From NCBI GenBank assembly GCA_947304585.1, contig CAMZBI010000001.1:25501-89500 (forward strand): a stretch of DNA of 64,000 nt, read 5' to 3'. Position numbers and translations under genes: made by a program. The DNA comes from an uncultured Clostridia bacterium. Lineage in GTDB: Bacteria; Bacillota; Clostridia; UBA1212. The first letter of the stretch is position 1, and each line of letters begins with the position of its first letter. The notes under the pieces were generated by a model, which saw only the letters and a list, made by a program, of their open reading frames with translations, ran no database searches and was not told the DNA's origin. Shown piece after piece: positions 5,968 to 63,395 of this stretch.

Positions 5968-5985
5968 GCAAATAACAGCTGCTTT

Positions 5986-6012: not shown

Positions 6013-6025
6013 TATCATCAACGGA

Positions 6026-6137
6026 TACCCACAGAAGAATCGCCGGATTGTCGGAAACCGACTGCGTTCCCCACATAAAACCCACATATGGTTTTGGCTA
6101 TTTTTAGCGTATTAATAAGGTTTCCCACAAACCCACA
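6026..6137. promoter_or_regulatory. DnaA-box-like cluster between dnaA and dnaN (oriC part)
   Basis: Five 9-mers ATACCCACA, TTCCCCACA, AAACCCACA, TTTCCCACA, AAACCCACA (7/9 matches to TTATCCACA), all in one orientation within about 110 bp. Confidence 0.5.
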
Positions 6138-6332
6138 ATCTCTATTATTACATCTATAAAAACCATTAATAAAAAGAGAGGAAAGCTCTCTCCGTGAGCC
6201 GTTTTTTCATATCGTACAATTTAAGTTTCAGCCCTTTTCAGAAAGGCCGTTTTGCTTTACAGAAAAGTCAAAATATGTTATAATCTCTATATTCCGATCG
6301 AGAGAAAAGATCCGGAAAAAAGGGAGGTAAAT

Positions 6333-7439: not shown

Positions 7440-7443
7440 AAAG

Positions 7444-8580: not shown

Positions 8581-8626
8581 AAATGATAAAATAAATGTGT
8601 ATATTTACACATCCCGGGAGCAGAAA

Positions 8627-10848
<2,222 letters not shown>

Positions 10849-10961
10849 CGATTTACTCCCCAAAGAGGCGGAGGGAGTCGCAAGACCCCGAAAGAATCTT
10901 GATTATCTGACCCCGGACCCTGCGGAAGACGTTGATGCGGGCCGGAGAACGGAAGTAAAAA

Positions 10962-11723: not shown

Positions 11724-11816
11724 TTCAACCGAATCGCATTCTACAGGATCACATTCAAATGGATTGCAGGAGAGGCGAAAATCGTATTAAATCCGGTATT
11801 AAAGGAGGCGGCTTGA

Positions 11817-18831: not shown

Positions 18832-18872
18832 GGCGAACCTCCCTAACGGTTTCTGCCATCCGATTTTAGCAC

Positions 18873-18907
18873 ATCGAGCGAAATCAATCAATGAAATTTC
18901 GCTCGAT
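18873..18907. promoter_or_regulatory. perfect 12-bp inverted repeat operator candidate upstream of the HTH-AAA_35 gene
   Basis: ATCGAGCGAAAT-N11-ATTTCGCTCGAT, plus a third half-site ATTTCGCTCGGAT at 18927. Confidence 0.4.
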
Positions 18908-19281
18908 TTCGCATAAATACAAATCAATTTCGCTCGGATTTCGTTTGCACGCAACGCTCGCGAAGACGGAAATTGCCAATGGAGATCCACAGATGTCAGT
19001 GAAAATTACGCCGCACAGCACAAATCCACATAAAACCCAAAGAAAATTTACACTTTTCCACGGATTTTTCTTCGATTTTCTGCACTTTTTCCGATTGGTG
19101 CGGTCCGGCTCGTACTAGTCAATAAAAAAGACACAAAAGTTCGCAGCAGGCATCAAAAACCGCCCCCCAAAAGTGCGGCTATGCATTGCGGAGCAACGTC
19201 GGGGATTACGGCAGGAGCGACGGTGTTGGCGGCAGAACGGCTTTATTTATAAAATAAAAAGGAAATAATTGAAAAAAACGC

Positions 19282-25039: not shown

Positions 25040-25378
25040 CATGCACTTTGCATCGCTGCGCTTTTTTGTTTTTGATGATTTCATAAACCCGCACTTAGCT
25101 GCGGGGCGGTAATCTTTGAAATCGCTTTTGCCCAAAAGGCAGGAGCGGCAAACCAAATATTTTGCCAATATATTTCCGGGGAAACGCAGCCGGATTTCGG
25201 ACAGCTGCGACCGGCCCGGATAGTTTCTACCATGACGCCGAATGTCACGACTATTGGGAAACCCCGTTTCAAGCGATCGAATTGCCGGAGCGGGACGTGT
25301 TGGCAAAAACAGACCCCTTAAAAGGTCTGCTTTTTGTTTGCAGTATACACACGTTATATTCAATATTTGGAGGAAATT

Positions 25379-31983: not shown

Positions 31984-32056
31984 GGGCCTATAGCTCAGTT
32001 GGGAGAGCGCTGCGTTCGCAACGCAGAGGTCATGGGTTCGAATCCCACTAGGTCCA
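31984..32056 (+). tRNA. tRNA-Ala (anticodon CGC)
   Basis: Manual cloverleaf: acceptor GGGCCTA/TAGGTCC with the G3:U70 Ala identity pair, D-arm GCTC-AGTTGGGA-GAGC, anticodon loop TTCGCAA, T-loop TTCGAAT; no encoded CCA. Confidence 0.85.
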
Positions 32057-32415
32057 CAAGACAGAATCAGGGGGGGTAGCCGTCGAGGTTACCCCCCTGA
32101 TTCTGTCTTGAAACAATAGCGTTGGATTCGAACCCGAGGCCCCCGCAAAATCGTCAGATATATTAAATATGGGGTCCCCGTAAAATCGTTAGATTTTGCG
32201 GGGAAGAGGAGCCACAGCGACGCAAACGGAGACTTTCAAGAGAGAAAGAGAGGAAGTTTCTTGAAAGTCGGAGTCCACGTTGCTTGTGGCGACGTGGAGC
32301 CGCAGCGGAGCGATTGAAGTCTTCCAACAAAGGAGAAAAAAAGAAAACCGTATTAAAACAAGAAATAACGGTTTGTTGCCGACTGAATGATGAAACTTCT
32401 GCCGGCTTTTTTATG
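32057..32415 (+). repeat. structured modular repeat, copy A (abuts tRNA-Ala; ends in terminator)
   Basis: 17-bp hairpin immediately after the tRNA; GGGATTCGAACCC; helix CCCCGCAAAATC…GATTTTGCGGGG; GAGGAGCC; GACTTTCAAGA…TCTTGAAAGTC hairpin; terminator TGCCGACTGA…TCAGCCGGCTTTTTT. Confidence 0.7.
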
Positions 32416-32516
32416 CAAAAGCAAACTTTTTGTGGCAAGACAAGACGAAATGAGTTTGGTACAATTTGCAATGTAAAAAATAGCCGGCATTTTTAAGACG
32501 GGAGGTGATTCCGCAA

Positions 32517-33005
32517 ATGAACACAGCTGAAAAAATCATAGCGCTCAGAGCTGAGAGAGGCATTTCGCAGCAGGAACTTGCTGACGCAGTTTTTGTTTCA
32601 CGATCTCTCGTGTCAATGTGGGAGGCGGGAACACGCATTCCGGACAGTTTGAGCGTTGAGAAAATGGCTGCGTTGTTCAATGTAAGTGAGGAGGAGATTT
32701 TGAGCGATAGGAAATACGCTTTTGCGTCGTCGCTTGAGAGGAAACTCATTGGCGATGAGATTGCGGAGTTTACCGATGTTGACAGTTCACCGGGTGACAA
32801 GGAACAGGTAAAAAAGATAATGAACGGGTTCCTTCAAAGCATTGGTGGCGTTGACCGCGAGTTGTTTATGAGTCGATACTTCGAAATGAAAACATGCAAA
32901 GCTATCTCAGAGGAAACGCATATGAACGTTTCTACAGTCAGGTGGAGATTGTCCAAACTGAGAAAGAAGCTTGTGCTTTACGCGAAAAAAGGAGGTAAAA
33001 AATGA
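32517..33005 (+). CDS. XRE-HTH + sigma-70 region 4 fusion regulator (ECF-like)
   Basis: N-terminal Cro/C1 HTH (…RGISQQELADAVFVSRSLVSMWEAG…); C-terminal sigma region 4.2-like (…RELFMSRYFEMKTCKAISEETHMNVSTVRWRLSKLRKKL). GGAGGTG RBS. Confidence 0.65.
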   Translation: MNTAEKIIALRAERGISQQELADAVFVSRSLVSMWEAGTRIPDSLSVEKMAALFNVSEEEILSDRKYAFASSLERKLIGDEIAEFTDVDSSPGDKEQVKKIMNGFLQSIGGVDRELFMSRYFEMKTCKAISEETHMNVSTVRWRLSKLRKKLVLYAKKGGKK

Positions 33006-35233
33006 ACGAAAAAGACTTTAGGGAGGCTTTGTCTGAGATTGGAAATGACGTCGATGCGCCAATTTCGGGCGACGCAGTGATAAAAAATAAAAGTAAATTC
33101 AGAAACATTGTGATCATATCTGCCGCGGCGGCAATCGTGCTGACTTTTGCGGTCATTGCCGCTGTTATTATCGGTACGATCGGATCGAATAATCAAAACA
33201 TAAGCGGGGGAGGGCCTTCTGACAAGGTCCTTTTGGTGAATACTCCTTCGCCTGGAGGTATTGACAAGACCGAAGAACCCGGCAATAAAGCAAACCACGG
33301 GGCAACGTCCTCGCCGACCGCAGACCCGACTTCAGCTCCCACAAATCCGCCAATTTCTCAGCCCACTGAGACTCCTGATGGACCTCAAGGGACTCGGGAG
33401 CCTTATTACGTTGAGCCTTTCTGGCTTAAGGGGGAGTATTTGACGGTCAAAAAGCTTGGCTACGGCGGCTCCTCAAACATCGTTTCCTTTGGCGAGGGGA
33501 GTGTCAGCGCAAAGATTATCCCCACAACGGTATTCGGCGAGCATGAGAACTGCGGGAAGGTCTACTATAACACGGAGACCAATGAGATATATTGCGTTTA
33601 CCACGAGTTTCTGGAGGCCTCGGGCGTGACCGTGCCGGAGGGTTATTACATCTATTATGAGCAGGACACGGTGCGGGACGATCTGATGTGCATAAAGATT
33701 GTTGATCCGGGTGACCTTGGCACCACGGACCTGTGGCTTTTTGACATGGACGACCGCCTGGCAAAGAGAGTGGGGCTTCCGGAGGGATGCGGCAGCTACG
33801 AGGATATAAAGATCTATACGCCGGGCCTCTGCAACGGGAAGCTTGCCCTTTGCGTCAGCGATGACATTGGCGATTGCTACATAAGTATTTTTAACAGCGG
33901 AACAGGTGAATATCAGGACTTCGGCAAGGACGCAGGCCTTAAGTCTCTGACCTGCACCTTCCTGACGGAGACTGTGCTTGAGGTGTCGACTCCCGACGGG
34001 TATTACGCCTGGAACACCGCCAATTCTAGAATGTTCAAGCTTATCGGTGAGCACAATATCGTGTTTGACGGGCTCCTTTATTCCGTGAAGAACTGGTGGG
34101 GAGGCTACCATAAGGACGTGGAAGTGGCGGTATATAACGTCGAGACCGGGCTCCTGAGGAAGGGAAGCGGCGGCGTGTTGGCATTGGCGGTGATGGACGA
34201 CGGATCCTACGGCGTGCTTTCTATTGACGACGAGACCGGAAATGAGACGGTCATCATGGATCATTATACGGAGGGCGCTACTGCCTGGAGCAAAGATCAT
34301 GCCTACTTTTACGCATATTCCGCCAAGGACAACAGAGTCCTCTGCTATTCGGTCTCCGCTTGCCAATGGACTTTTGCAGACGTTGCTCCGATAACAAAAG
34401 ATCCGGTACTCGTCGAAGGGACTCTTTATGCGGTGTTCAACAGCTGCAGGCTTGCCGTCGACGACAACTGCAGGGAGGTTACGCTTTACCACACAAGAAA
34501 ACTGGAAGAAATACCTGACCTTCCGGATTTTGAGGAGCAGAGGGTTGACTCCCCTTACTGGGACGACTATCGCGACATTGCCGCAAATAACCGTTTCTCG
34601 GAAACTGACCGCTGGTATGTCACCTACAAAGAGGACAGGGTCAGCACGGGATGGATCGGACATGACGTCGCCAACATGGATGCCCTGCGGGATATCATAC
34701 TGCTTTGCCTGGAGACCCGGGGCGAAAGACTAAAATACGATTTGACTGAAAGCGATTACGACTTCTTTAAAATGAGTTTCAGCTACAGTACATTCAGCAT
34801 GGAGTTTTTTGAAAAAGACGGCAGATACTACTTGAATCTCAATGCCAACAGACAGCCTCCAATGGGTTTCGTGAGTGAATTCAGCGAGATACCGGAAGAG
34901 ACTTTCCTAAGGGTCATGGATATGCACAGCCCTTACGTTCAGTTCACATGGATATCGGTATCAGCCCGAATCGACGATGTTTCAGATCCAAATTGCAAGG
35001 TGGTACTTGATGAGAGCGAGAAGAGTTATTTGAAGGAGTTAATATCTTCCGGCAATTGGAGGCAAAACGATTTTCAGGGCGTTACGTATTTCAGGTACGC
35101 ATGCTTTTTCATTGACGGTGATGTGTGGTTCTGTTATGAGCCCAACATGAAAATCTTGCAGGATATCATGCACTCAACACATATAGAGCTAACAGACGAG
35201 GAGTGCGCCGCCATCGACATAATGCTGAATTGA
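33002..35233 (+). CDS. single-pass membrane anti-sigma-like protein with large extracytoplasmic domain
   Basis: 4-nt overlap with the regulator gene; short cytoplasmic N-terminus, one TM helix (IVIISAAAAIVLTFAVIAAVIIG), about 680-aa exterior domain. Confidence 0.5.
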   Translation: MNEKDFREALSEIGNDVDAPISGDAVIKNKSKFRNIVIISAAAAIVLTFAVIAAVIIGTIGSNNQNISGGGPSDKVLLVNTPSPGGIDKTEEPGNKANHGATSSPTADPTSAPTNPPISQPTETPDGPQGTREPYYVEPFWLKGEYLTVKKLGYGGSSNIVSFGEGSVSAKIIPTTVFGEHENCGKVYYNTETNEIYCVYHEFLEASGVTVPEGYYIYYEQDTVRDDLMCIKIVDPGDLGTTDLWLFDMDDRLAKRVGLPEGCGSYEDIKIYTPGLCNGKLALCVSDDIGDCYISIFNSGTGEYQDFGKDAGLKSLTCTFLTETVLEVSTPDGYYAWNTANSRMFKLIGEHNIVFDGLLYSVKNWWGGYHKDVEVAVYNVETGLLRKGSGGVLALAVMDDGSYGVLSIDDETGNETVIMDHYTEGATAWSKDHAYFYAYSAKDNRVLCYSVSACQWTFADVAPITKDPVLVEGTLYAVFNSCRLAVDDNCREVTLYHTRKLEEIPDLPDFEEQRVDSPYWDDYRDIAANNRFSETDRWYVTYKEDRVSTGWIGHDVANMDALRDIILLCLETRGERLKYDLTESDYDFFKMSFSYSTFSMEFFEKDGRYYLNLNANRQPPMGFVSEFSEIPEETFLRVMDMHSPYVQFTWISVSARIDDVSDPNCKVVLDESEKSYLKELISSGNWRQNDFQGVTYFRYACFFIDGDVWFCYEPNMKILQDIMHSTHIELTDEECAAIDIMLN

Positions 35234-35282
35234 CGTGCAGGGTTCAAAAGGACAGGTCGGCGGATGTGACGGATTGAACAGC

Positions 35283-35752
35283 GCATCTATTAAGGATGCA
35301 CTGTAGGGTAAAAACGGCCCACTGCATCTAAACCGACCACACACCACACAGACGCAGGGAGTAGCCTCCACGGCTACTCCCTGTGTCTGTAATAGAAACT
35401 ACCTGGTGGGATTCGAACCGGGGCCCCCGCAAAGATTTGGCGAAAAGGCTTTAATAACGCCAATTCTTTGTGGGGAAAAGGAGGCGCAGAGATGCAAACA
35501 AAGTGATTCAAGCGAATTTGTTCTTAAAATGCTTAGATCACGCAGTCGGCGTCTCTTGCGGCGACGCATTCGTACGCTATTGAGGCTTTTCAAACACGGG
35601 TTTCAAAACTGAAAAACAGTCTTTTTTACAGGTTTTTCTAAAGATTTTTTTGCCGAAATCAATGACCGGTTTCCGGGAAATCCGAGAACAGGATCAAGAA
35701 TAACAACGATATGTTCCCGACTGATTGATGAATATTCAGCCGGCTTTTTTTT
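35283..35752 (+). repeat. structured modular repeat, copy B
   Basis: TGCACTGTAGGG…CTGCATCTAAACCGACCACACACCACA; hairpin CAGACGCAGGGAGTAGCC/GGCTACTCCCTGTGTCTG; 18-bp helix CCCCGCAAAGATTTGGCG…CGCCAATTCTTTGTGGGG; AAAGGAGGCGCAGAGATGCAAAC; micro-ORF; terminator. Confidence 0.75.
35529..35612 (+). other. Arg-rich micro-ORF inside repeat copy B (MLRSRSRRLLRRRIRTLLRLFKHGFQN)
   Basis: ATG conserved in copies B, C and D2; coding status uncertain. Confidence 0.25.
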
Positions 35753-38233: not shown

Positions 38234-39307
38234 TCATCGGTCTATAACAGCTTTAATAACTCCGCCGCCGATAACCAAACCTCTTTCATCATAAAAAACG
38301 GCGGACTGCCCCTGTGCGGCAGCCCTCACGGGCTCGTCAAATTCAACTCTTACAGTGTCGTTTCTCGCTTTTTCGATAAATGCGGGCTGACCTTTGTGCC
38401 CGTATCTGATCTTGACAATGCATCTTACTTTTTTACTGTCCTCAAGGCTCTCAATACTCATAAAGTTCAGATTATTGCAAAGTATTTCCCGATTGTAGAG
38501 AGAGTCACTCTTTCCGATAACGACTTCGTTTTTTTCCGGGAGTATTTCCTTCACATAGCCCGGATATCCCAGGGAAATACCGAGCCCTTTTCTTTGGCCC
38601 ACAGTGTAATATATGATTCCCTTATGCCTTCCCAGCACATTTCCGTCAGGATCGACAAAATTGCCTTCTTTTGCACAGCCTGTTTTGGCTGCAATAAAGT
38701 CCCCGTAGCTCCCGCCGGTCACAAAGCAAATCTCCTGAGAATCCGGCTTTGAAGCAACGGCAATTTCCGCCTCCTTTGCGATACTTCTGACTTCGTCTTT
38801 ACTTAAACCGCCAAGAGGCATCAGCGTCGCTGCAAGCTGTTCCTGGGTCAGCCTGTAAAGCATGTAAGTCTGGTCCTTTTCGGTATGGCAGGCTGTCTTC
38901 ACCGTATACCTTCCGTTCTCAAGCTTTTCAACAGAAGCGTAGTGCCCGGTGGCAATATGATCTGCCCCGAAAACCTTGGCGTAAAACAGAAGCTTCTCCC
39001 ATTTAACATACCTATTGCAAAAAACACAGGGGTTGGGTGTACGGCCGGAAAGGTATTCGCCGACAAAAGGCTCTACTATATGTCTCCTAAAATCCGACGT
39101 ACAGTTTATGGGATAATAAGGTATGCCGATGCTTCTTGCGGCGTCTCTTGCATCGTCGATGTCGCAACAACGTCCTTCGTCACCGTCTTCAGTCTGCCAG
39201 ACCCTCAGGGTCACGCCAATGACATCATATCCCTCTTTTTTTAGGAGATATGCCGCTACGGCGCTGTCGACTCCTCCCGACATTCCCACAACAACCTTAT
39301 TACCCAT
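38234..39307 (-). CDS. mnmA: tRNA 2-thiouridine(34) synthase
   Basis: PP-loop VVVGMSGGVDSAVAA and conserved cysteines. Confidence 0.9.
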   Translation of the reverse strand: MGNKVVVGMSGGVDSAVAAYLLKKEGYDVIGVTLRVWQTEDGDEGRCCDIDDARDAARSIGIPYYPINCTSDFRRHIVEPFVGEYLSGRTPNPCVFCNRYVKWEKLLFYAKVFGADHIATGHYASVEKLENGRYTVKTACHTEKDQTYMLYRLTQEQLAATLMPLGGLSKDEVRSIAKEAEIAVASKPDSQEICFVTGGSYGDFIAAKTGCAKEGNFVDPDGNVLGRHKGIIYYTVGQRKGLGISLGYPGYVKEILPEKNEVVIGKSDSLYNREILCNNLNFMSIESLEDSKKVRCIVKIRYGHKGQPAFIEKARNDTVRVEFDEPVRAAAQGQSAVFYDERGLVIGGGVIKAVIDR

Positions 39308-39572: not shown

Positions 39573-40266
39573 GACTCTATTTAGTTTTCAAGTCATGTTA
39601 TCTTGTACACTGTATCTATTTAGTCTGTACAGTGCATCTTTTAGGGATGTACAGTAGGCCAAAAACGGCCCTCTGCATCTAAATCGACCACACACCACAA
39701 GGTGAACCCGGGTCCCCGAAAGTGCTCGCGCTTTTGGGGAGAGGAGCCGGGGCGGCGGGAATGGAGTCTTTCAAGTGAGGATCTATAAACTTCTTGAAAG
39801 ACGGAATCGTCGGCGTTCGCGGCGACGAAAATAGATGCACACGCAAAAATCGGCTATTTTTAGCCGATTGGAGCGGCTCGAAAGGCCAAAAATTTTAGTG
39901 CGAAATAAAAAGATGCAAAAGCCTATTCCCGAGGGGAATCCATAGGGGCCCCCGAAACTCGCTTTCACACATTGGCCCGTCACTAGTCCGCTTTCGCGGA
40001 AATCGTTCCGGCTCCAATGTGTGGCGCGAGATGGGCCTATTTATGCGCTTTTGGGGAGAAGGAGCCGCAGAGACGCAAACGAAGTGGTCCAAGCGAATAC
40101 AATCTTATAATGCTTGAAACACGCAGTCGGCGTCTCTTGCGGCGACGCATTCGTACGCTATTAAAGCCTTACAACAAGAGTCTTTAAGGGAAAAAGAGAG
40201 CTATATTAAAACAAGAAATAACGGTTTGTTGACGACTGAGTGATGAAACTTCAGCCGGCTTTTTAG
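39573..40266 (+). repeat. structured modular repeat, copy D (composite, two tandem module sets)
   Basis: ACTGTATCTATTTAG and TGTACAGT(×2) block; CCCCGAAAGTGC…GCGCTTTTGGGG; GTCTTTCAAG…CTTGAAAGAC; AATCGGCTA-TTTTT-TAGCCGATT; second helix CCCCCGAAA…CTTTTGGGG enclosing CACACATTGG…CCAATGTGTG; micro-ORF; terminator. Confidence 0.75.
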
Positions 40267-40409: not shown

Positions 40410-41357
40410 ATGAGCAATGATAAAACGAAACTCATTCTCGCGAATACCAATGAGCAGGGCACAGATGCCCTCAATATTCAAAGCTTAATTTACGTTTTTC
40501 GTGATAAACAGGTCATGCTTGACAGTGACTTGGCTTATTTGTATAAAGTTGAGACCGGATATCTCAACAGAGCAGTAAAACGCAACATCAGCCGATTTCC
40601 AGAGGATTTTTGTTTTCAACTTACAATAGAAGAATATGCAATCTTGAAATGCCAAATTGGCATAGCAAGTTCGGAGTCAGCTAATGGATATGGCGGCAGG
40701 AGGACTCGGCCATATGTGTTTACAGAGCAAGGCATTTCGATGCTTGCAAGTGTTTTGCATAGTGATGTCGCCGTTAGTGTAAGCATCCGGATTATGAGAG
40801 CTTTTGTGGAGCTGCGACATTTCATTTCCGGCAATGCGCTGCTGTTTGAGCGAATAAGTTCCGTTGAACTTCGTCAACTGGAATACCAAAAAGAGGTTGA
40901 TGAAAAGTTTGAGAAGGTTTTTGAATATATTTCGGATCATCAAGAGGCTTCGCAGAAGGTCTTTTTCAATGGGCAGATTTATGATGCTTTCAGCCTGATT
41001 TCCAGTTTGATTAAGAAGGCTTCAACAGATATTATCCTGATTGATGGATACGTAGACACGGGAACCCTTGATTTGCTCTCAAAGAAACGGTCAGGCGTTG
41101 GCGTCTCTGTTTATACCTCGCAACACGGATGCCGACTCACTAATGCTGAAGTTACTGCATTTAATGCCCAGTATCCCGCTCTCTCTGTGTCATATACCAG
41201 CGTTTTTCATGATCGCTTTTTAATTTTGGATCACCGGAAAGGATATCACATTGGAGCCTCAATTAAAGATGCCGGGGGAAAGTGTTTTGCTATTTCCAAG
41301 TTGGAGGATTCACAGATTATACAAGACATCATCAATAGGCTATCGCATTCAAACTGA
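40410..41357 (+). CDS. ORF6N (KilA-N-related) domain protein with C-terminal extension
   Basis: …VMLDSDLAYLYKVETGYLNRAVKRNISRFPEDFCFQLT… matches the ORF6N domain; low-GC gene. Confidence 0.65.
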   Translation: MSNDKTKLILANTNEQGTDALNIQSLIYVFRDKQVMLDSDLAYLYKVETGYLNRAVKRNISRFPEDFCFQLTIEEYAILKCQIGIASSESANGYGGRRTRPYVFTEQGISMLASVLHSDVAVSVSIRIMRAFVELRHFISGNALLFERISSVELRQLEYQKEVDEKFEKVFEYISDHQEASQKVFFNGQIYDAFSLISSLIKKASTDIILIDGYVDTGTLDLLSKKRSGVGVSVYTSQHGCRLTNAEVTAFNAQYPALSVSYTSVFHDRFLILDHRKGYHIGASIKDAGGKCFAISKLEDSQIIQDIINRLSHSN

Positions 41358-42755: not shown

Positions 42756-43254
42756 CATATGCATCTATTTGGTCTGAACACTGTATCTATTTAGGATGTA
42801 CAGTAGGGTAAAAACGGGCCTCTGCATCTAAATCGACCACACACCACACACAGAATCAAGGGGTAGCCTTCGCGGTTACCCCTTGATTCTGTGTTGAAAC
42901 AATAGCGTGGGATTCGAACCCGGGGCCCCCGAAAGATTTGGCGAAAAGGCTTTAATAACGCCAATTCTTTGTGGGGATAAGGAGCCGCAGAGACGCAAAC
43001 GAAGTGATTCAAGCGAATTTATTCATAAAATGCTTGGATCACGAAGTCGGCGGCTCTTGCGGCGACGCATTCGTACGCTATTGAGGCTTTTCAAACACGG
43101 GTTTTAAGACTGAAAAACAGTCTTTTTTACAGGTTTTTCAAAAGATTTTTTACCGAAATCAACGACCGGTTTCCGGGAAATCCGAGACCGGGATCAAGAC
43201 AAATAACAACGATCTGTTGCCGACTGAGTGATGAAAATTCAGCCGGCTTTTTGG
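42756..43254 (+). repeat. structured modular repeat, copy C
   Basis: Near-identical architecture to copy B, but the 5' hairpin is ACAGAATCAAGGGGTAGCC-TTCGC-GGTTACCCCTTGATTCTGT. Confidence 0.75.
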
Positions 43255-49629: not shown

Positions 49630-49740
49630 GCACCTGTTTGGTCTGCATACAGTATCTTTTTATATGCACACGCAGAAATCGGCTATTTTTAGCCGATTGG
49701 AGCGGCTTGGAAAGCGATTTTTTGAGCAATGAAATAAAAA
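49630..49740 (+). repeat. partial copy (E) of the structured repeat
   Basis: TTTGGTCTGCATACAGTATC…GCACACGCAGAAATCGGCTATTTTTAGCCGATTGGAGCGGCTTGGAAAG matches the internal segment of copy D. Confidence 0.55.
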
Positions 49741-49819
49741 GAGACAAATGCCAATTATGGCGTTTTTGTGCTGTCGATTGCGGATCGGTAGGCATTGGCG
49801 CCAATGCTGCCGGATCGCA

Positions 49820-51238
49820 TCACCTTTTTCCCGCATCCTTGCCGATCCTGAAGATAAGATTGCCGTTTTCGTCATAGCCGGAATAAACGGTCTCCACGTT
49901 GAGTCCGATCGAATTAACAAGCGGGCCCTTATCATATACACTTTTCACGTATTCCGAAACTATGAGACAGTACTCACCGTAATCAATAACTGCAGTCGGC
50001 GTTCCTGCGTCAAAGTCCTGAAAACGACTGTCATTTGAGAAAATGAATGAACCGTTTATAATTCCCACTAACGATTCGTTGCGAAACATATTATCTGACA
50101 CTGTCGATCCGAGAACGTTAAGGTCGTAATCGATCTCCACGTTCATGTCGACAGCGAGAACGGTTTTACCGGAATCAACAAAATCACCGTCGGTCGACTG
50201 CGTTCTGACGAAAAGCATAAACCCGCCCTCAGAGGGTTTTGCATAGTTTAAATGATCAAAATCACTGCCTTTGAGGAAACCTCTTTTGATCTCTTGTCCG
50301 TCATCGGCGAGAATGATCATTATAACGTCGGTCTCTCCGTAGTCACGCCACTTCTGCTGATCACGATGCGTTCCGAAAAAGAAATATCTGCCTTCCCTTT
50401 CGATGCAGTTGTAAAACGAACTGCCCTCAAGGCCGTCAAATGCTTTATCAAACTGGAGATTTCCGAATCTGTCGCATTTTATGACTCTCGAGGCGTAACC
50501 TTCATCGCTCGCCCGTTTTTGATCCAAATAGTCATAAGTATAATCTTGAAAGCCGAGGACGAAAAGAAAGCCTCCGTCGGAAGTTGCGGTCAGTGTCGTG
50601 ACGATGTATGCGTCATCGCATTTCACGGTATACTCGGCAAGAACGTCGCCAAAGATATCGAGCATCGTTACCTTTTGAACGACCGTTCTCGTTTCCGGAT
50701 CTTTTTCAACGGTCTCACTTTTCAGCAGTCTGTCGGAAAAAGCTTTGGCGTCTTTAAAGGCGTTCTCATCGATGAGGCTCGTAAGCTCCGGCGGTATCGC
50801 GCCGCTGTCTGTCTCTCGAGGCGGGAAAACGTACCTGTTCCAGATTTCCTCAAGCATCTCGGGTGTCATTTCGGCGTTCCCGATCTCCTCGCAGGGAACA
50901 CTGTTTTTGATTACTTCCGCTGTTTTCTCATCCGTGAACCTTTTTTCTATGATATCGAAGAATACGTTTTTCATTTCTGTACGGCTGAGACCTTCCGAAT
51001 TCAGTCCGTTGTTTTCAAAGAAGGCTGAAGCAGCGTCAAAGGCCTTGGCTTCCGAATAGGCAAATACGCCTGCCACGGCAGCAAGTGCCGCGATTAGAAG
51101 AACGCATACGGACACGGGTATCCATCGTAAATGGTTCCGGCTGTTTTTTTTACTCGATCCTGAGTACGATCTCAAAGCACGGTCAGCCATTTCTTCGTCT
51201 ATACCGGCGAACGCGTCGAAAAGCTGGTTATCTTTCAT
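49820..51238 (-). CDS. single-pass membrane anti-sigma-like protein (paralog of 33002..35233)
   Basis: N-terminus MKDNQLFDAFAGIDEEM resembles MNEKDFREALSEIGNDV of the first partner; one TM helix; 4-nt overlap with the upstream regulator gene. Confidence 0.5.
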   Translation of the reverse strand: MKDNQLFDAFAGIDEEMADRALRSYSGSSKKNSRNHLRWIPVSVCVLLIAALAAVAGVFAYSEAKAFDAASAFFENNGLNSEGLSRTEMKNVFFDIIEKRFTDEKTAEVIKNSVPCEEIGNAEMTPEMLEEIWNRYVFPPRETDSGAIPPELTSLIDENAFKDAKAFSDRLLKSETVEKDPETRTVVQKVTMLDIFGDVLAEYTVKCDDAYIVTTLTATSDGGFLFVLGFQDYTYDYLDQKRASDEGYASRVIKCDRFGNLQFDKAFDGLEGSSFYNCIEREGRYFFFGTHRDQQKWRDYGETDVIMIILADDGQEIKRGFLKGSDFDHLNYAKPSEGGFMLFVRTQSTDGDFVDSGKTVLAVDMNVEIDYDLNVLGSTVSDNMFRNESLVGIINGSFIFSNDSRFQDFDAGTPTAVIDYGEYCLIVSEYVKSVYDKGPLVNSIGLNVETVYSGYDENGNLIFRIGKDAGKR

Positions 51239-51717
51239 TTTTTTGACTCCTTTATGTACCTTGCAAGTTTGGCTCTTGTCTTTGAGAGAATGCTCCTGAC
51301 GTGATTCTCGCGAATGCCGTACGCTTCAGCGATCTCGGCAGTGTTCTTCAGGTGATAGTAACGATTAATAAAAATATCAGCGTCCTTTTCCGGGATGCTC
51401 CTTAGAAAACGGTCCAAAACAACTGCCAGATCTGCGTCGCTGATTTCGATTCCGGCAAGGTTGCCGTCAAAGAGTTCTTTGAAAACAAGGTCGGTTGTAT
51501 CAACTATTTCGTCAACTTTGGCGTTAAATACTTCTGCTATTTTTTCGATCATACGATAATTCGGACGCCTCGTTCCGTTTTCCCATTTTGAGACCAGATC
51601 TCTTGAGACAAACAAACTGTCGGCAAGCACCTGCTGAGACATACCGTTTTTATTGCGCAATTCACTTATTTTTTTGCCGATATTCAGCGAAAACACCTCC
51701 TTTGACCATGATCGCAT
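51235..51717 (-). CDS. XRE-HTH + sigma-70 region 4 fusion regulator (paralog of 32517..33005)
   Basis: Same two-domain architecture (…GMSQQVLADSLFVSRDLVSKWENG… and …DIFINRYYHLKNTAEIAEAYGIRENHVRSILSKTRAKL). Confidence 0.65.
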   Translation of the reverse strand: MRSWSKEVFSLNIGKKISELRNKNGMSQQVLADSLFVSRDLVSKWENGTRRPNYRMIEKIAEVFNAKVDEIVDTTDLVFKELFDGNLAGIEISDADLAVVLDRFLRSIPEKDADIFINRYYHLKNTAEIAEAYGIRENHVRSILSKTRAKLARYIKESKK

Positions 51718-51900
51718 GTAAATTATACCTCATTGACGGTAACATAATAAGGGACAAAACGCACCCGGACCGGAAAGATTGTTTTCGTAAGCTTATTCCC
51801 CGAATTTTTTATGATTTTGGGAAATAATCCCGGTACTCTGATGATCCGAAGGTGCTCTCTTGCCAATGGGACAGGGAAGAAGTAAGCGGGACTCTTTACG

Positions 51901-52085
51901 GAGTTATGTACAGTACCCGCGAAAACCCTTAAAAACCCGGGAAAATACCGCCAAGAAATCTAAAACGACCACACCCCCCAAGGATAAAGACTCCTTCGCG
52001 GGGGCTTTTTCGTGGCGTTGTACAAGCGCTAAGAGGCCCCCGAAAGCGCTTGCACTTTTGGGAGGAGAAAAGCCGCAACGACGTT
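51901..52085 (+). repeat. partial copy (F) of the structured repeat, upstream of the AAA ATPase gene
   Basis: ATGTACAGTA…TCTAAAACGACCACAC; GACTCC-TTCGC-GGGGGTC hairpin; GAGGCCCCCGAAAGCGCTTGCACTTTTGGGAGGAG. Confidence 0.65.
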
Positions 52086-52201
52086 TTTGGATATGAATCA
52101 AATTCACTTGACAAATTGCGATTATGTATATATAATGCCAAAAACAAATTGCGATTACGTCGTGATTTGACCCAAAAGAAATTGCGACAGGAGATTACGC
52201 C

Positions 52202-53530
52202 GTGTTTAGAAGAAAAATCTATGATAAGCTTTTGGAGTGGAAAAAGGAATCACAGGGCAGAACTGCGTTGATGATTGAAGGGGCTGGGCGAGTTGGAAAA
52301 TCGACAGTAGCGGAAGAATTTGCGAAAAATGAATATGACAGTTTTATTCTTATAGACTTTTCAATTGCGCCGCAGGCTGTCAAGAACCTTTTCGATGATA
52401 TGTCGAATCTTGATTTCTTCTTTCTTCAACTTCAACTGCTATACCATGTCGACCTCGAAGAACACAGATCTATTATTATTTTTGACGAAGTGCAGTTCTT
52501 TCCAAAAGCCAGGCAGGCGATAAAGCATCTGGTCAAGGACCGAAGATACGATTATCTTGAGACGGGCTCTCTTATCTCGATAAAGAAAAACGTAAAAGAC
52601 ATTCTGATTCCAAGTGAGGAACAGAAAATCAAAATGTATCCGATGGACTATGAGGAATTCCTTTGGGCCATTGGCGATAATACGACGATTCCTCTGATCC
52701 GCCAATGCTTTGAATCGCGAAAGGCTGTGGGCGAACAGCTGAACCGGAGACTTATGCGCGATTTCAGGTTATATATGCTTGTCGGCGGTATGCCTCAGGC
52801 TGTAAATGAATACCTGGAAACGAATAATTTACGGAAAGTCGATCTTGTCAAGCGAACGATTTTGTCGCTTTACGAAGAGGATTTCAGGAAAATCGACCCA
52901 TCCGGAAGAGCTTCTATGATGTTCGATGCCATACCTGCGCAACTTTCGAAGAACGCATCAAGATATATGATAACAAGTGCTCTGCAAAAGAGAAAGACCG
53001 AAAAAACATCCGAAATGATAGCCGATATGGCAGATTCAGGGACCGTTTTGATTGCTTGTCATGCTGACGACCCGAACGTCGGCCTTTCGGCCACCGGAGA
53101 CTTTTCCTCTTTTAAGATGTTTGTATGTGATACCGGACTTTTCGTAACACTGATGTTCAAGGACCGTGATTTTACTGAAAATATCATATATGAAAAACTG
53201 CTTAACGACAAGATTGGAGCAAATCTTGGATATTTGTACGAGAATGCCGTGGCACAAACGCTTGCATCTAACGGAGACAGGTTGTTTTACTACACATTTT
53301 TCAACGAGTCATCCCGGCACAACTACGAGATCGATTTTCTCTTGGCACGCGGAAACAAGATTTGCCCTGTTGAAGTTAAATCGTCAGGATACAAGGCCCA
53401 TGTTTCTTTAGATAAGTTTTTTGAGAAGTACTCGTCGCGTATTCTTCAAAAATATCTTGTTTATACTAAAGATCTCGCCAAAGATACCGATACGCTTTGC
53501 GTGCCTGTTTATATGGCCCAATTCATGTAA
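52202..53530 (+). CDS. AAA+ ATPase (AAA_14 + DUF4143 family)
   Basis: Walker A GAGRVGKST; the widespread orphan ATPase family; GTG start after AGGAG; low GC. Confidence 0.75.
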   Translation: MFRRKIYDKLLEWKKESQGRTALMIEGAGRVGKSTVAEEFAKNEYDSFILIDFSIAPQAVKNLFDDMSNLDFFFLQLQLLYHVDLEEHRSIIIFDEVQFFPKARQAIKHLVKDRRYDYLETGSLISIKKNVKDILIPSEEQKIKMYPMDYEEFLWAIGDNTTIPLIRQCFESRKAVGEQLNRRLMRDFRLYMLVGGMPQAVNEYLETNNLRKVDLVKRTILSLYEEDFRKIDPSGRASMMFDAIPAQLSKNASRYMITSALQKRKTEKTSEMIADMADSGTVLIACHADDPNVGLSATGDFSSFKMFVCDTGLFVTLMFKDRDFTENIIYEKLLNDKIGANLGYLYENAVAQTLASNGDRLFYYTFFNESSRHNYEIDFLLARGNKICPVEVKSSGYKAHVSLDKFFEKYSSRILQKYLVYTKDLAKDTDTLCVPVYMAQFM

Positions 53531-53775
53531 GATTATTGCCAAGAAAACTAAAACGTCTACACACTCCACGAAAAAAGACTCCTTCGCGGGGTCTTTTTTC
53601 GTGGTGGAGCAAGTAAAGAAAGAGGCCCCCGAAAGTGCTTGCACTTTTGGGAGGAGGAGCCAAAACGGCGGAAATGGGGAGTCCTTCAAGGAAACGAAAA
53701 AACGAGAGTGGAATAATGACAAATAATAACGGTTTGTTGCCGACTGAGTGGTGAAGCTTCAGCAGGCATTTTTTA
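53531..53775 (+). repeat. copy G of the structured repeat, immediately downstream of the AAA ATPase gene
   Basis: CTAAAACGTCTACACAC; perfect 14-bp stem CCACGAAAAAAGAC/GTCTTTTTTCGTGG around the TTCGC loop; GAGGCCCCCGAAAGTGCTTGCACTTTTGGGAGGAGGAGCC; terminator. Confidence 0.7.
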
Positions 53776-54033
53776 CAAATTGAAAATAGGAGGATCTTAA
53801 AAAGAAATAAACAATTGAAAACGACATTTATTCAGAAAAGTACTGTTGCCCGCTCAAGTTCAATTGCTACGAAGGAGGCGTTGAAGAATGTTGAATGTGA
53901 GTTCAAAATGAAGTATCATTCCGGTGGATATTGTATGCATAAGAAGCAGAAAAAACCTAATGGTTTTTCATACCGGTCTGCGGTATAAAAAGCGGATGAG
54001 ATTCACATATTGTTGCGACATTTTGGAGGGAAC

Positions 54034-54384
54034 ATGAAAACAATAGTTATTGGGCTTGGCGGATTAGGATGCAGGGCTGTTTCACAAATATATGGGAAAC
54101 TTGATAAAAGAAAAGTTGAGGCATTTGGATTAGATGTCGATTGTGTTGATCTTGACCATATAATGAAAGGATCGACCGGACTCCCGTGTTTTTTCGTGAG
54201 TCCTATAAGAGATTTGAACTCGACGGATTTATCAGTATTAACATCAATATTAAACAATAAAGAATGGTTTCCGTTTGATCATATTCCTCCCATCTCACAT
54301 AATGTGGGAGGCAATAGAGCATTCGGAAGACTGTTTTTTGAATCATTCCTTCAACTGAAAAAAATGATTTCTTATCTCGCCTAG
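54034..54384 (+). CDS. tubulin/FtsZ (TubZ-like) GTPase, N-terminal part (T1 loop), separated from its continuation by an A7 homopolymer frameshift
   Basis: MKTIVIGLGGLGCRAV resembles the FtsZ/TubZ T1 glycine loop; frame-1 ORF stops at 54384. Confidence 0.45.
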   Translation: MKTIVIGLGGLGCRAVSQIYGKLDKRKVEAFGLDVDCVDLDHIMKGSTGLPCFFVSPIRDLNSTDLSVLTSILNNKEWFPFDHIPPISHNVGGNRAFGRLFFESFLQLKKMISYLA

Positions 54385-54422: not shown

Positions 54423-56567
54423 GTGATTGTGACTTCTTTAGCAGGAGGCTTTGGCTCAGGGGTACTAATACCTTTATCATTGATGATAAGGGGACTGTCC
54501 GAGGCTTATAGTACCGGAAAAACAATAATAACAGGCGTTTTTATCTCTCCTGAATCCTTTATTTCTTTTTTATGGGACGATCTGTCGTTATATGAGAAAG
54601 ACGCTATGCGTGCGAATGCGTATGCAACTTTAAAAGAGTTGAATATGATTAACGAAATATGTATGTCAAAGTCACCGGCAAATGATGTATGGGATATGAA
54701 AATAATGGATCTGTTTGATAGCGACAAAGACAAGGGAAATAGAAGAAAAATCCCATTTGATGAAGTCTTATTTGTCAAATCTCAATACGCAAAAAACGAC
54801 CGGTGGGACTTCATTGATGAAGTGTCCAATTGCCTGTTGACCATTGTAACGTCTGGATTATATGCCTCTAAAAAGGATGCGAATTTAGCCCTAGTACCGT
54901 ACGGGATTTATGGTGACTATTCCGGAGTTTGTGGATACGTTGGCTCGTCGTGCATAACTTATCCTTACCGTTTTGTTGTGAAATACTGTTGCTGGCGCGC
55001 AACGATTCGTGAATTATCCGACGTGTGGACGTTAGTAGATCGAGAAATAAAAAACACAAAATGTGATCATAGCCCTGAAAGCGGTGACTCAAGAGACAAC
55101 AAGGAGAGCCTTGGAAAGCTGTTTGTTGCGACTGTTAACAGCATGCTTGAAGATGGCAACTCCAAACTTGGTTTTATTGCCAATGCAATTACAGATAGCT
55201 CTGAAGACGGAAGTCAGTTCGACAAGGTCGACGTATATTACGATCATGTGTATAATTTTGTCTTGGATAAAATTAGGAGTGACGAAGAAATCAAGACGAA
55301 ATCTGATGGAGCCGGTGTTACAGAGAAGCAGCTGAAGGACAATTTAGTGACCGGTGTAACCCGCTGCGAAACTGCTTTAAAGGATTATTTTTATACGATC
55401 GACAGCAGAATTGACCATATTCGCAGTTTGGTTGTTCCTGTCATCCCGGATGATTCAGGTTTTGTAATTATTCCTGACAGCAACTTGGACATCATGAAGC
55501 TTGTTACAAGTCATGGACACATTGTCCACCCGCTTGCAATGCGTATGCTTCTGTATAAGTTCAGAGCAAAAGTGGCTGAAGAGTATGAACGCAGCTCTTC
55601 GTTAACGGCATCTTATATTGAAGACATTAACTACTATTTTAAAAAAGCATACGACATCAAGGGAACAGAGAGAATTGAGCATGCGTACGATCGCGCTGAT
55701 CAGAAAGGGTTTTTCAAACAAAGAAAGTTCAGAGCAGAGTATTTGATTAAATCTGCAGATCAGAAGTCATTACTTGACAAATACCGTGATACAAAAGCTA
55801 TTGCAGTTGTTTTTGGTGATATCCTTGAGCGCCTTGATTATATTATTGATGTTTTTGAAAAGTTCTTTGATTCTTTGGATCATGTAGTAAAGGAATTACA
55901 ACGCGGTGTTGAGGATTTGGAAAAAAGTATAATGAAAACGGAGGGAAGCCTGTATCTGTCGAAACCCGAAATTGAAGAGATTTATGACTCCCTGGATATA
56001 AGTTCTTTTGAGTTTAACAATAGTGACATATTTGAAGTTATCTTTAATGAGTTATATATGAAGGCACTTCATCCCTATGAGTACAAACATTATGGAGACA
56101 ATTTTTTTGTGGAAAAGATTATTCCAATAATAGAGTCCAATTTTACTGAGGCGTTTTCCAATAAACTTAATCTGGATCTATTTGATGTGATGGAGAAAGT
56201 TGCTGAGGGAGACAGAGGTTTAGAAGAAAAAATGGTTGGTTCTGCCTGTCAACGAGCAACTCCTCCGGTAGCTTTTGCTCCGATCGATTTGTCGATATGC
56301 ATTGTAAACAACTCGTTATATGAGCACCTTGAAATGGATAATGCTTTGTCAGTATTCTCCCACCATTGTGGTGTTGATACGGCTGACTGCGTCAGTAATA
56401 AAGATGCGATATTTTTAAGAGAAAAAAGCGGATTGTCTTTTGCCGATATTATTCTTTCAGCGGAATTCACCAAGTGTGAAGAGGCGTATAAATTAGTGCT
56501 TGATAAATACAAAAAAAGCCCCCGGGGTAATTATTGTCCGCATATTGACAAGAGATGGTGCGTGTAA
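54423..56567 (+). CDS. tubulin/FtsZ (TubZ-like) GTPase, continuation (T4 loop onward) with about 570-aa C-terminal extension
   Basis: Frame-3 reading is already open from 54342 (…KNDFLSRLEQAYYEAQGPVRVVIVTSLAGGFGSGVLIPLSLMIRGL…); AGGFGSG matches the tubulin signature [SAG]GGTG[SA]G. One extra A in the run 54358-54364 fuses both parts into a protein of about 840 aa. Confidence 0.45.
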   Translation: MIVTSLAGGFGSGVLIPLSLMIRGLSEAYSTGKTIITGVFISPESFISFLWDDLSLYEKDAMRANAYATLKELNMINEICMSKSPANDVWDMKIMDLFDSDKDKGNRRKIPFDEVLFVKSQYAKNDRWDFIDEVSNCLLTIVTSGLYASKKDANLALVPYGIYGDYSGVCGYVGSSCITYPYRFVVKYCCWRATIRELSDVWTLVDREIKNTKCDHSPESGDSRDNKESLGKLFVATVNSMLEDGNSKLGFIANAITDSSEDGSQFDKVDVYYDHVYNFVLDKIRSDEEIKTKSDGAGVTEKQLKDNLVTGVTRCETALKDYFYTIDSRIDHIRSLVVPVIPDDSGFVIIPDSNLDIMKLVTSHGHIVHPLAMRMLLYKFRAKVAEEYERSSSLTASYIEDINYYFKKAYDIKGTERIEHAYDRADQKGFFKQRKFRAEYLIKSADQKSLLDKYRDTKAIAVVFGDILERLDYIIDVFEKFFDSLDHVVKELQRGVEDLEKSIMKTEGSLYLSKPEIEEIYDSLDISSFEFNNSDIFEVIFNELYMKALHPYEYKHYGDNFFVEKIIPIIESNFTEAFSNKLNLDLFDVMEKVAEGDRGLEEKMVGSACQRATPPVAFAPIDLSICIVNNSLYEHLEMDNALSVFSHHCGVDTADCVSNKDAIFLREKSGLSFADIILSAEFTKCEEAYKLVLDKYKKSPRGNYCPHIDKRWCV

Positions 56568-62352: not shown

Positions 62353-62477
62353 AAAGAGTCTGAAAATAGAGTATCGTTGTTGTTAAAAATTATTAATAAT
62401 TATAAATCGACGAGCACCAGGCAAACCGTCGAAAAAATAGCTTTGAAATAATTTAAAAATACAGTTTATAATTTTCA

Positions 62478-62535
62478 ATTTTGTGGTAGATTGCAGTCAC
62501 AGAGGCAAACAAGCACTTGCCCTTGGAAGTCAAAC
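62478..62535 (+). repeat. ~55-bp repeat, copy 1 (GTGGTAGATTGCAGTCACAGAGGCAAACAAGCACTTGCCC…AGTCAAA)
   Basis: Same element recurs at 63232 and 63338. Confidence 0.5.
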
Positions 62536-62592
62536 TATAATTCACAATTGTTTCTCACCAATATTCTAATAATTCAAAAAAGGAGGGTTTTT

Positions 62593-63111: not shown

Positions 63112-63231
63112 TGTCGTAGAAGACATCGTTCATCCCTTCAACAATAGTTGGAGGGATGATTCCTTACGCGCAGGAGAATAATCACATTATAGTTTTGATT
63201 ATTTTTTTAAAAGCTCTTTAAAAAAACCATT

Positions 63232-63395
63232 TTCGTGGTAGATTACAATCACGGAGGCGAACAAACAGTTGCCTCTGAGAGTCAAAAAAATTCCAGTCAA
63301 AAAAATTATTTAAAACCCTTTAAAAAATTCAATTTCGTGGTAGATTAAAGTCACAGAGGCGAACAAACAGTTGCCCCTGAAAGTCAAAAAAAGTT
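63232..63395 (+). repeat. two tandem copies of the ~55-bp repeat (63232-63290 and 63338-63395)
   Basis: TTTCGTGGTAGATTACAATCACGGAGGCGAACAAACAGTTGCCTCTGAGAGTCAAAAAAA and TTTCGTGGTAGATTAAAGTCACAGAGGCGAACAAACAGTTGCCCCTGAAAGTCAAAAAAA. Confidence 0.55.

Follow-up and report, generated by a model that had tools for sequence, protein, structure and literature searches.

The AAA_14/DUF4143 ATPase gene at 52202-53530 of the stretch analysed here (64,000 nucleotides of contig CAMZBI010000001.1 from an uncultured Clostridia bacterium, hereafter the window) lies in an array of gene cassettes that is anchored at a tRNA-Ala gene, is bounded throughout by copies of one structured repeat family in a single orientation, and differs in content between closely related strains. 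A preliminary description of the sequence had pointed to two directly repeated partial copies of this repeat around the gene, F upstream and G downstream, and had proposed either a repeat-bounded cassette that recombination can mobilise or an insertion of the gene into one repeat copy with duplication of that copy. Our comparisons support the first of these proposals in part, the ATPase gene being one replaceable cassette of the array and not a special mobile unit. We tentatively favour, giving it slightly less than an even chance, a scenario in which this single-gene cassette belongs to a tRNA-anchored array built by site-specific accretion, with the recombinase encoded elsewhere. The architecture of the array, the replacement of cassettes from strain to strain and the retention of the layout around the closest homologues of the ATPase gene are directly visible in the compared sequences.

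The ATPase gene and its flanking repeats

The repeats are composed of modules, to which we gave the working names m1 to m7 and X. The m1 block (about 90 nt) comprises two or three tandem 22-bp iterons (ATCTAWWTAG-NN-TGTACA), a 41-bp step and a terminal iteron, ATCTAAATCGACCACACACCACA, and ends ...CGACCACACACCACA; m2 is a hairpin, m3 (GGGATTCGAACCC) is the reverse complement of the T-arm of tRNA-Ala, m4 and m5 are long hairpins, X and m6 are optional blocks, and m7 is a terminator-like hairpin followed by a T-run. The direct repeats around the ATPase gene are real: a BLAST comparison of 51900-52110 with the window returned 53538-53656 (81.8% identity over 121 nt, E 3.9e-27), a repeat search of the window recovered the same pair (families D7 and D8), and the motifs quoted in the preliminary description, GCCAAGAAA(T/A)CTAAAACG, GACTCCTTCGCGGGG, TTTTCGTGG and GAGGCCCCCGAAAG(C/T)GCTTGCACTTTTGGGAGGAG, were all found. 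Global alignment of F (51950-52095) with G (53538-53690) gave 116 identical positions among 134 aligned bases, the longest exact run being 20 nt. Both repeats are longer than this alignment: F reaches upstream to 51906, the added stretch being the 5' part of m1, which also matches two related loci from other strains, L014 and L022 (loci outside the window carry the prefix L), and G runs on to 53776 through a terminator module common to the repeat copies A to D described below. The gene between them is, as first described, a single low-GC AAA_14/DUF4143 open reading frame (ORF; GC content 41.9% versus 48.5% for the window). The features of this segment are as follows.

51906-51980, + strand: F part 1, m1 block of the F subtype, ending ...ATCTAAAACGACCACACCCCCCA; right end of the preceding cassette
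51981-52016, + strand: F part 2, decayed G-type hairpin (m2), -11 kcal/mol, z 0.2
52035-52067, + strand: F part 3, hairpin 2 (m4), GGCCCCCGAAAGCGC..GCACTTTTGGGAGG, with one C.A mismatch that is not in G
52108-52136, + strand: consensus sigma-70 promoter, TTGACA-17 nt-TATAAT, 12 of 12 matches
52113-52187, + strand: three AAATTGCGA boxes (52113, 52146, 52179) at intervals of exactly 33 bp
52202-53530, + strand: AAA_14/DUF4143 ATPase gene, 442 aa (PADLOC PDC-S01)
53538-53568, + strand: G part 1, short m1 consisting of the terminal iteron only, beginning 7 nt past the ATPase stop codon
53569-53601, + strand: G part 2, intact hairpin (m2) with A-tract, stem and T-tract, -19 kcal/mol
53624-53656, + strand: G part 3, hairpin 2 (m4), perfectly paired, -17 kcal/mol
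53657-53776, + strand: G part 4, m5 remnant and m7 (GCCGACTGA...TCAGCAGGC plus T-run), common to copies A to D

In F, a stub of m5 follows hairpin 2 and extends to about 52095, and the m7 terminator module is absent. F and G resemble direct repeats because each boundary is a composite, in which the m1 of one cassette is joined to the hairpin and leader of the next. F thus combines the m1 of the preceding cassette with the decayed hairpin and leader of the ATPase cassette, and G combines the short m1 of the ATPase cassette with the intact hairpin, leader and terminator of the downstream unit, so that the ATPase cassette itself extends from about 51981 to 53568. The homology of L022 and L014 to the m1 of F ends at, or just before, the 3' end of m1. 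The hairpin of G is likely to serve the ATPase gene as terminator. Its sequence agrees at 98% with that of the hairpin directly 3' of tRNA-Ala in Ruminococcus sp. RUG13779 (L012), and a hairpin that follows an m1 in L021 matches it equally closely (98%). Two other readings of the F/G pair were considered and rejected. In the first, a template/variable repeat pair of a diversity-generating retroelement, the mismatches would be adenine-specific; they are mixed (T>A 4, C>T 3, C>A 3, G>A 2, A>G 2 and others), and no reverse transcriptase was found in the window. The second, a composite transposon, a transposon with terminal inverted repeats or a miniature inverted-repeat transposable element, does not fit repeats that are direct and not inverted, and neither a transposase in the window nor a target-site duplication was identified.

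The encoded protein matches Pfam AAA_14 over residues 21-154 (E 6.2e-20), DUF4143 over residues 226-395 (E 2.3e-17) and the PADLOC PDC-S01 model PDLC04786 over residues 1-441 of 442 (E 4.2e-97). Its Walker A (GAGRVGKST), Walker B (IIIFDEVQ) and PD-(D/E)XK-like (EIDFLL...PVEVK) motifs are intact, and it shows no feature atypical of PDC-S01; a search by sequence found no relative in the PDB. PDC-S01 (COG1373, AAA_14 plus DUF4143) is described as an ATPase-nuclease that is a defence candidate only, by prediction (PMC12988326), and is reported to outnumber every other single defence-candidate locus in rumen genomes (PMC13356809), while DUF4143 is listed as a family of the PD-(D/E)XK superfamily (PMC3424549).

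Upstream of the gene, the consensus promoter is kept in all homologous loci. The three AAATTGCGA boxes overlap the -35 element, the region after the -10 element and the ribosome-binding site; they are invariant alignment columns among the homologues and are also present in L015-L017 and L025-L026. Since nothing else travels with the gene, the boxes are probably a putative operator bound by the ATPase itself, which would make the gene autoregulatory. We know of no description of a phased triple AAATTGCGA operator or of a repeat-bounded context for such a gene. In L025 (positions 128-260; an 83% nt homologue) four boxes are present, one unit of about 34 nt being duplicated, and the operator copy number therefore varies.

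Homologues of the ATPase are many, at 70-91% aa identity. In nine contexts (L001, L005, L009, L015/L016, L017, L025, L026 and the window), nucleotide homology extends only from 52107 to 53530-53533, that is, from just upstream of the -35 element through the stop codon. The L015/L016 homologues (86% nt) are the only ones flanked by the repeat family, and their layout repeats that of the window: a full m1, a hairpin of another allele, about 20 nt, promoter and coding sequence, 7 nt, and a short m1 at which the contig ends; m4 is missing there. More distant homologues (83-77% nt; L017, L025, L026, L001, L005 and L009) carry the promoter-to-stop unit in unrelated contexts with no repeats, which indicates that the gene family also moves without them. 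Conversely, L021 carries a different DUF4143 gene in the same leader-gene-m1-hairpin layout.

These comparisons bear on the second proposal of the preliminary description. In its general form, one ancestral repeat copy would have been duplicated locally, and the ATPase unit would either have landed between the two copies or have caused the duplication by its own insertion; F and G would then be sisters with no mobilising role. F and G are indeed mutual closest relatives in the window, G being the only strong match of F; both lack m3 and both carry the same hairpin and m4 alleles, and the ATPase unit is sharply bounded at 52107 and 53533 and exists elsewhere without repeats. However, the hairpin of G is 98% identical to those of the other strains and loci mentioned above, whereas F and G share just 82-87% overall, and L015/L016 have the short m1 after the stop codon with a different upstream hairpin allele and without m4, which argues that the flanks do not stem from one local duplication. 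Moreover, unrelated cassettes repeat the leader-gene-m1-hairpin layout, and a target duplication of about 150 bp matches no known insertion mechanism. We regard the origin of F and G by local duplication as quite improbable.

A tRNA-anchored array with exchangeable cassettes

The bracketing by repeats, which could have seemed special to the ATPase gene, is not: every cassette between 32 and 54 kb of the window is bounded alike. The anchor and the remaining repeat copies are the following.

31984-32057, + strand: tRNA-Ala(CGC), array anchor, called from its sequence by ARAGORN and by the Rfam tRNA model (66 bits)
32058-32411, + strand: copy A, with a hairpin, an inverted T-arm copy (m3), structured hairpins and m7, and no m1; the tRNA takes the place of m1
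35260-35749, + strand: copy B, full element from m1 to m7, after the 743-aa gene
39604-40264, + strand: copy C, m1 with three 22-bp iterons, two structured sub-units, module X and m7
42760-43252, + strand: copy D, full element from m1 to m7, 88% identical to B
49661-49756, + strand: fragment E (module X), left edge of the cassette with the 472-aa and helix-turn-helix (HTH)-sigma genes, which ends in the m1 of F
32109-32136, 35410-35425 and 42912-42925: m3 positions in the window (in related loci, L014 3075-3095 and L012 3442-3459)

Copy A starts at the base directly 3' of the tRNA-Ala end (32057), and the seven boundaries, spread over 22 kb, are all on the + strand and all downstream of this tRNA gene; BLAST and the repeat search found no copy of the family in the remaining 42 kb. 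About 27 kb separate the array from dnaA and the chromosomal origin, the window containing dnaA, dnaN, recF, gyrB and parA/parB at 4537-12710. Its cassettes carry, in order, HTH-sigma and 743-aa genes, rhamnosidase-like and MnmA genes, ORF6N and 448-aa genes, a set running from GNAT to HTH-sigma, and the ATPase gene; minus-strand genes are present in three of them. The copies are 73-92% identical to one another over most of their length, and the modules occur shuffled, duplicated and nested.

Searches for relatives of the repeat gave no match: Rfam 15 contains no family matching F, G or any other copy or module (at gathering thresholds, and up to E 5), three repeat patterns had no match in viral contigs, and the full copy D with all seven modules had none in PLSDB plasmids or INPHARED phages. 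Given that its modules are missing from the viral contigs and from both collections, the family does not correspond to any known element of phages or plasmids. Readings of the modules as a group II intron, as a bridge RNA of IS110, as an omega-RNA of IS200/IS605 or as tmRNA-like were considered on the basis of module anatomy and dropped, no supporting protein or Rfam match being found for any of them.

The boundaries are defined to the base. Across 17 distinct m1 junctions from the window and the related loci, the same 21-mer is kept up to ...CCACA, and divergence sets in from the next base; the terminal 21-26-mer of m1 is identical in many copies. A near-perfect hairpin of 14-21 bp stands immediately 3' of the junction in 13 of the 15 that were folded, and all three tRNA 3' ends that we compared (window tRNA-Ala, RUG13779 tRNA-Ala and RUG13779 tRNA-Lys) likewise abut a hairpin. 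The alleles of this junction hairpin all differ in sequence, with folding z-scores down to -10.8. Since both are directly abutted by a hairpin, the m1 end and the tRNA 3' end are equivalent in this position. Within m1, the iteron spacing of 22/22/41 bp is kept in copies C and D of the window and in L018, L019, L021 and L023, and such conservation suggests a protein-binding array.

One could also see the repeats as expression elements, that is, as 3' untranslated region (UTR) blocks, terminators and leader or small-RNA genes whose high density in this variable region is a coincidence, in which case the flanking of a gene by them would be uninformative on mobility. The position of m1 fits this reading, as in most cases a stop codon precedes it and a terminator-like hairpin follows, m1 starting 27, 34 and 7 nt past the stops of the 743-aa, 448-aa and ATPase genes, respectively; the hairpin of G and m7 are terminator-like, the modules fold stably, and pairing in the hairpins is kept while their sequence varies. 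Copies C and F, however, follow divergently transcribed genes, so that m1 is no 3' UTR there, Rfam families give no match, and the repeats coincide with breaks of synteny between strains. A role in expression would in any case be compatible with the other readings and not exclusive of them; as an explanation of the array by itself we consider it very improbable.

The exchange of cassettes was seen in related loci collected with two patterns: the scan of genome collections used the m7 pattern only and gave four loci, and the scan of metagenomes used the m1 pattern only and gave seven contigs. The m7 matches come from metagenome-assembled genomes (MAGs) of rumen or related Clostridia, namely Ruminococcus sp. 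RUG13779, Mageeibacillus sp. UBA1257 and Clostridia RGIG3403. L022 matches the window at 97% identity over 49659-51980, which covers the 472-aa plus HTH-sigma cassette and the m1 of F; past the m1 end it continues with a different hairpin and a CotH-domain gene, and has no ATPase gene. In L014, from RUG13779, an F-type m1 (92%) is joined straight to m7 and to the HTH-sigma/743-aa cassette, which is 97% identical to the one that in the window follows copy A. L021 has the same HTH-sigma/743-aa cassette with its own B-type m1 and a D-type hairpin, and in L012 the tRNA-Ala gene is followed by a G-type hairpin, m3 to m7 and the ORF6N cassette (98%). Close strains thus differ by reshuffled cassettes, one of the breaks coinciding with the end of m1. 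L022 and L014 have unrelated content at the same repeat junction, an outcome that the preliminary description had named as speaking against its reading, and this points to a site of general exchange and not to a mobile unit specific to the ATPase; what holds of the first proposal in the preliminary description is that the repeat-bounded unit has exchangeable content, as seen in the swap in L022 and in the shared layout of L015/L016. The repeat-bearing loci are rich in defence-type genes, including three further DUF4143 genes, Fic, AbiEii and NTP_transf_2.

Contigs from metagenomes and MAGs often end within or beside a repeat copy (L011, L013, L015, L016, L020 and L027), that of L027 stopping before F. 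As short-read assemblies break at the family, its copy number and cargo are probably under-represented in MAG-based surveys.

The window cassettes themselves hold several features. Two of them (32505-35233; 49820-51717, minus strand) each encode a small protein with HTH_3 and sigma-70 region 4, the two being 38% identical to each other, and in both cases there is an overlap between the HTH-sigma gene and the beginning of the reading frame for a large protein without annotation (743 aa and 472 aa, respectively); these two large proteins are mutually unrelated. The 472-aa protein has an N-terminal segment, a transmembrane helix and an ectodomain, and together with its HTH-sigma partner shows a sigma/anti-sigma-like layout. 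That the 472-aa and 743-aa proteins might be novel transposases was considered and dropped in view of their lack of mutual relationship and of this anti-sigma-like layout. The ORF6N-domain protein (40410-41357) matches the PADLOC defence candidate PDC-S05 (E 8e-124) and forms one cassette with the unannotated 448-aa protein; RUG13779 and RGIG3403 carry this cassette at 98% identity. The mnmA gene (38234-39307, minus strand), which encodes a tRNA 2-thiouridylase (tRNA_Me_trans, E 5e-69) and is apparently a housekeeping gene, stands in the interval from copy B to copy C, where its neighbour is a rhamnosidase-like gene. Look-ups of exact proteins for the ATPase, the HTH-sigma protein and MnmA gave no identical match.

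Other observations concern the tRNA-derived segments of the repeat. The m3 module reads exactly as the adjacent upstream tRNA's T-arm in reverse complement and varies with that tRNA, being GGGATTCGAACCC beside tRNA-Ala and GGGACTCGAACCC beside tRNA-Lys, and a CAATAGCG...CGCTATTG pair could close an m3-m5 domain; judged by sequence, m3 and this pair look like a tRNA-mimicking or anti-tRNA structure. L014 (3019-3375), L020 (3640-3855, minus strand) and L021 (12960-13527, minus strand) contain mini-elements of 190-340 nt that are built of the same modules and carry no genes; in L021 they stand in tandem. Their flanks consist of a complete tRNA and a direct but partial repeat of that tRNA's 3' end (tRNA-Lys AGTCCCTGAAGGTGCACCA; tRNA-Ala GAATCCCACTAGGTCCA), the classic integrase signature of integration into a tRNA gene. 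In L019 (5930-6365) and L023 (300-740), two m1 blocks of opposite orientation face each other across about 245 bp; hairpins lie in this interval, together with a fragment of the tRNA-Lys 3' end in reverse complement, and the arrangement looks like two arrays converging on one site.

How the array may have been assembled

In the site-specific accretion that we tentatively prefer, a cassette would consist of a hairpin, an optional structured leader, its genes and then m1, and it would enter or leave by site-specific recombination at the boundary between an m1 (or a tRNA 3' end) and the hairpin. Such units could be integrated in the Campbell manner, or accrete as integrase-less units that are mobilisable in cis, the catalyst being a recombinase encoded elsewhere for which the iterons would serve as arm-type binding sites. 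The cargo of the ATPase cassette would be self-contained, with its own sigma-70 promoter, three phased AAATTGCGA boxes and an ATPase-nuclease, and with the hairpin of G as terminator. We infer this kind of recombination, and the role of the iterons in it, from several features that favour it: the single orientation and tRNA anchoring of the array, the conserved iteron architecture, and the equivalence of m1 ends and tRNA 3' ends in front of hairpins. Added to these are the partial copies of tRNA 3' ends around mini-elements and the change of m3 with the tRNA. Moreover, the hairpin at the distal end of the window array is of the G type, which in RUG13779 natively adjoins tRNA-Ala; insertion of the array between the tRNA and its own terminator would be expected to place it there.

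Several results weigh against this scenario. Pfam scans of the ORFs, covering the window (64 kb) and repeat-bearing loci that add up to about 72 kb, detected no recombinase of any kind, integrases and transposases included; the window contains no extra GAATCCCACTAGGTCCA (the tRNA-Ala 3' end) with three mismatches allowed; and the m1 terminus resembles the tRNA 3' end only weakly (12 of 23 positions, permutation p 0.02). Neither a circular form of the ATPase cassette nor an empty site was recovered, and the array includes the housekeeping gene mnmA. A sharp end of homology at the repeat edge would also be expected from homologous recombination within m1. In addition, strains break at other module edges too (window 40044 and 40218, compared with L012 and L013), and breaks at several edges look like mosaic shuffling and not like one fixed crossover.

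These points lead to the alternative that the mosaic repeats act as portable homology for RecA-dependent recombination, through which genes would be deleted, swapped or inserted and the ATPase gene captured, with no dedicated recombinase involved. This is an appreciable possibility, though short of likely. It fits the lack of a recombinase in all repeat-bearing DNA that we examined, the strain breaks at several module boundaries (32413 in the window in addition to the two above), the shuffled, duplicated and nested modules, and the identical terminal 21-26-mer of m1, which would provide short perfect homology. Yet identity between the copies is just 73-92% for most of their length, and F and G share no more than 20 consecutive identical bases, a poor substrate for RecA. 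Homologous recombination also leaves unexplained the partial repeats of tRNA 3' ends, the equivalence of m1 and tRNA ends, the strict iteron spacing and the uniform orientation.

A bolder form of site-specific accretion would be a cassette-capture system of rumen Clostridia that has not been described so far. The array would stand between a tRNA gene and its terminator, the recombination site would consist of the iteron block and a hairpin recognised by its shape and not its sequence, and a recombinase would act in trans. The cassettes would be small, often single-gene and promoter-bearing, and enriched in defence candidates (PDC-S01 and PDC-S05 in the window; Fic, AbiEii and DUF4143 in related loci), and the tRNA-mimicking modules, that is, the inverted T-arm copy and the acceptor-like ends, would take part in site recognition. 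We consider this unlikely. A two-ended transposon was rejected, as no inverted m1 was found at the left ends of cassettes in the window (z below 2); only module X in other strains opens with one inverted iteron.

Other features of the window, significance and known systems

Outside the repeat copies, the window contains a split Tubulin_2-like gene, with ORFs of 124 aa (54010-54384) and 714 aa (54423-56567). Its homologues have about 1120 aa and 34-48% identity, the only near relative being P0121 (714 aa, 100% identical to the longer ORF), which is encoded on a 173-kb contig, and the gene may be a pseudogene or a truncated variant. An 87-nt element (..TTTCGTGGTAGATTACAATCACGGAGGCGAACAAACAGTTGCCTCTGAGAGTCAAAAAAA) is present in three copies (62452-62538, 63204-63290 and 63306-63392) beside a gene for a small secreted protein, one copy standing just upstream and two in tandem just downstream; it has no Rfam match and may be a cis-regulatory leader or a small-RNA family. 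A second orphan ATPase-nuclease, with HTH_17, AAA-ATPase_like and PDDEXK_9 (17023-18990, minus strand), lies among housekeeping genes, with no flanking repeats and no PADLOC match. Finally, a purine riboswitch at 25146-25273 scores barely over its Rfam threshold (39.3 versus 37 bits).

We found no explanation in the literature of how solitary genes of the PDC-S01 type move or are regulated. The locus studied here offers both a route of entry into the chromosome, namely a tRNA-anchored array with base-defined boundaries whose contents differ between strains that are 97% identical, and a regulatory element that travels with the gene, the consensus promoter with its three AAATTGCGA boxes being kept in all contexts that we compared. 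Should a dedicated recombinase act on the sites of iterons plus hairpin, the array would be an integron-like platform for defence genes in Firmicutes, and its sites would help to find further cargo genes in rumen metagenomes; with purely homologous recombination, it would be an ordinary variable region with an unusual repeat family.

Tandem islands with direct-repeat bounds downstream of tRNA or tmRNA genes, some of them without integration genes, are documented (PMC5704250, PMC3146451). Published parallels are the tandem build-up of integrative elements and cis-mobilisable elements (CIMEs) at such genes, as in the relatives of ICESt1 and the ssrA islands of Dehalococcoides. There, too, strain-specific blocks stand downstream of a tRNA-type gene near the origin, each block is bounded by direct repeats of the same orientation, many blocks have no integration genes, and content varies between close strains; partial repeats of tRNA 3' ends are likewise present in related loci of our family (L014, L020 and L021). 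Unlike these islands, the window boundary is not a copy of the tRNA 3' end but consists of iterons (about 90 nt), a variable hairpin and structured modules of at most 400 nt; the window cassettes are very small, starting from one gene (1.6 kb), and no integrase was found in the window or the loci.

Integron cassettes resemble those of the window in being short, often single-gene and serially arranged, in keeping the structure of a hairpin while its sequence varies, and in that no cassette contains the recombinase. The window array, however, has no IntI and no attI. Its hairpins differ from attC in being near-perfect, with neither R''/L''/L'/R' boxes (RYYYAAC/GTTRRRY) nor extrahelical bases, and, unlike integron cassettes, those of the window have their own promoters (12 of 12 sigma-70 matches for the ATPase), carry genes on both strands and have a conserved iteron block beside each hairpin. 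The repetitive extragenic palindromic (REP) sequences and bacterial interspersed mosaic elements (BIMEs) of enterobacteria and the BOX elements of pneumococcus are also modular palindromic units in variable combinations, intergenic and often beside terminators. In contrast to them, the window copies are clustered in one tRNA-linked region, have a single orientation, are much longer, coincide with cassette replacement and contain tRNA-derived segments.

The m1 block itself recalls the ends of Tn7, Mu and Tn402, which carry several transposase-binding repeats of 19-22 bp with the terminal copy at the tip; m1 likewise has three or four direct 22-bp repeats at fixed spacing, the last of which abuts the junction. 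As in Tn7 ends, the reverse strand of m1 reads 5'-TGTGG..., and m1 adjoins the end or terminator of a tRNA-type gene. The window cassettes differ from these transposons in having no inverted partner end, no transposition genes and no identified target-site duplication. With regard to its cargo, the window ATPase gene agrees with PDC-S01 in being solitary and in the patchy, multi-copy distribution of its family. Taken together, tandem islands and cassettes anchored at tRNA genes are known, and what is unusual here is a boundary formed by an iteron block and a hairpin, with a PDC-S01 defence candidate as cargo.

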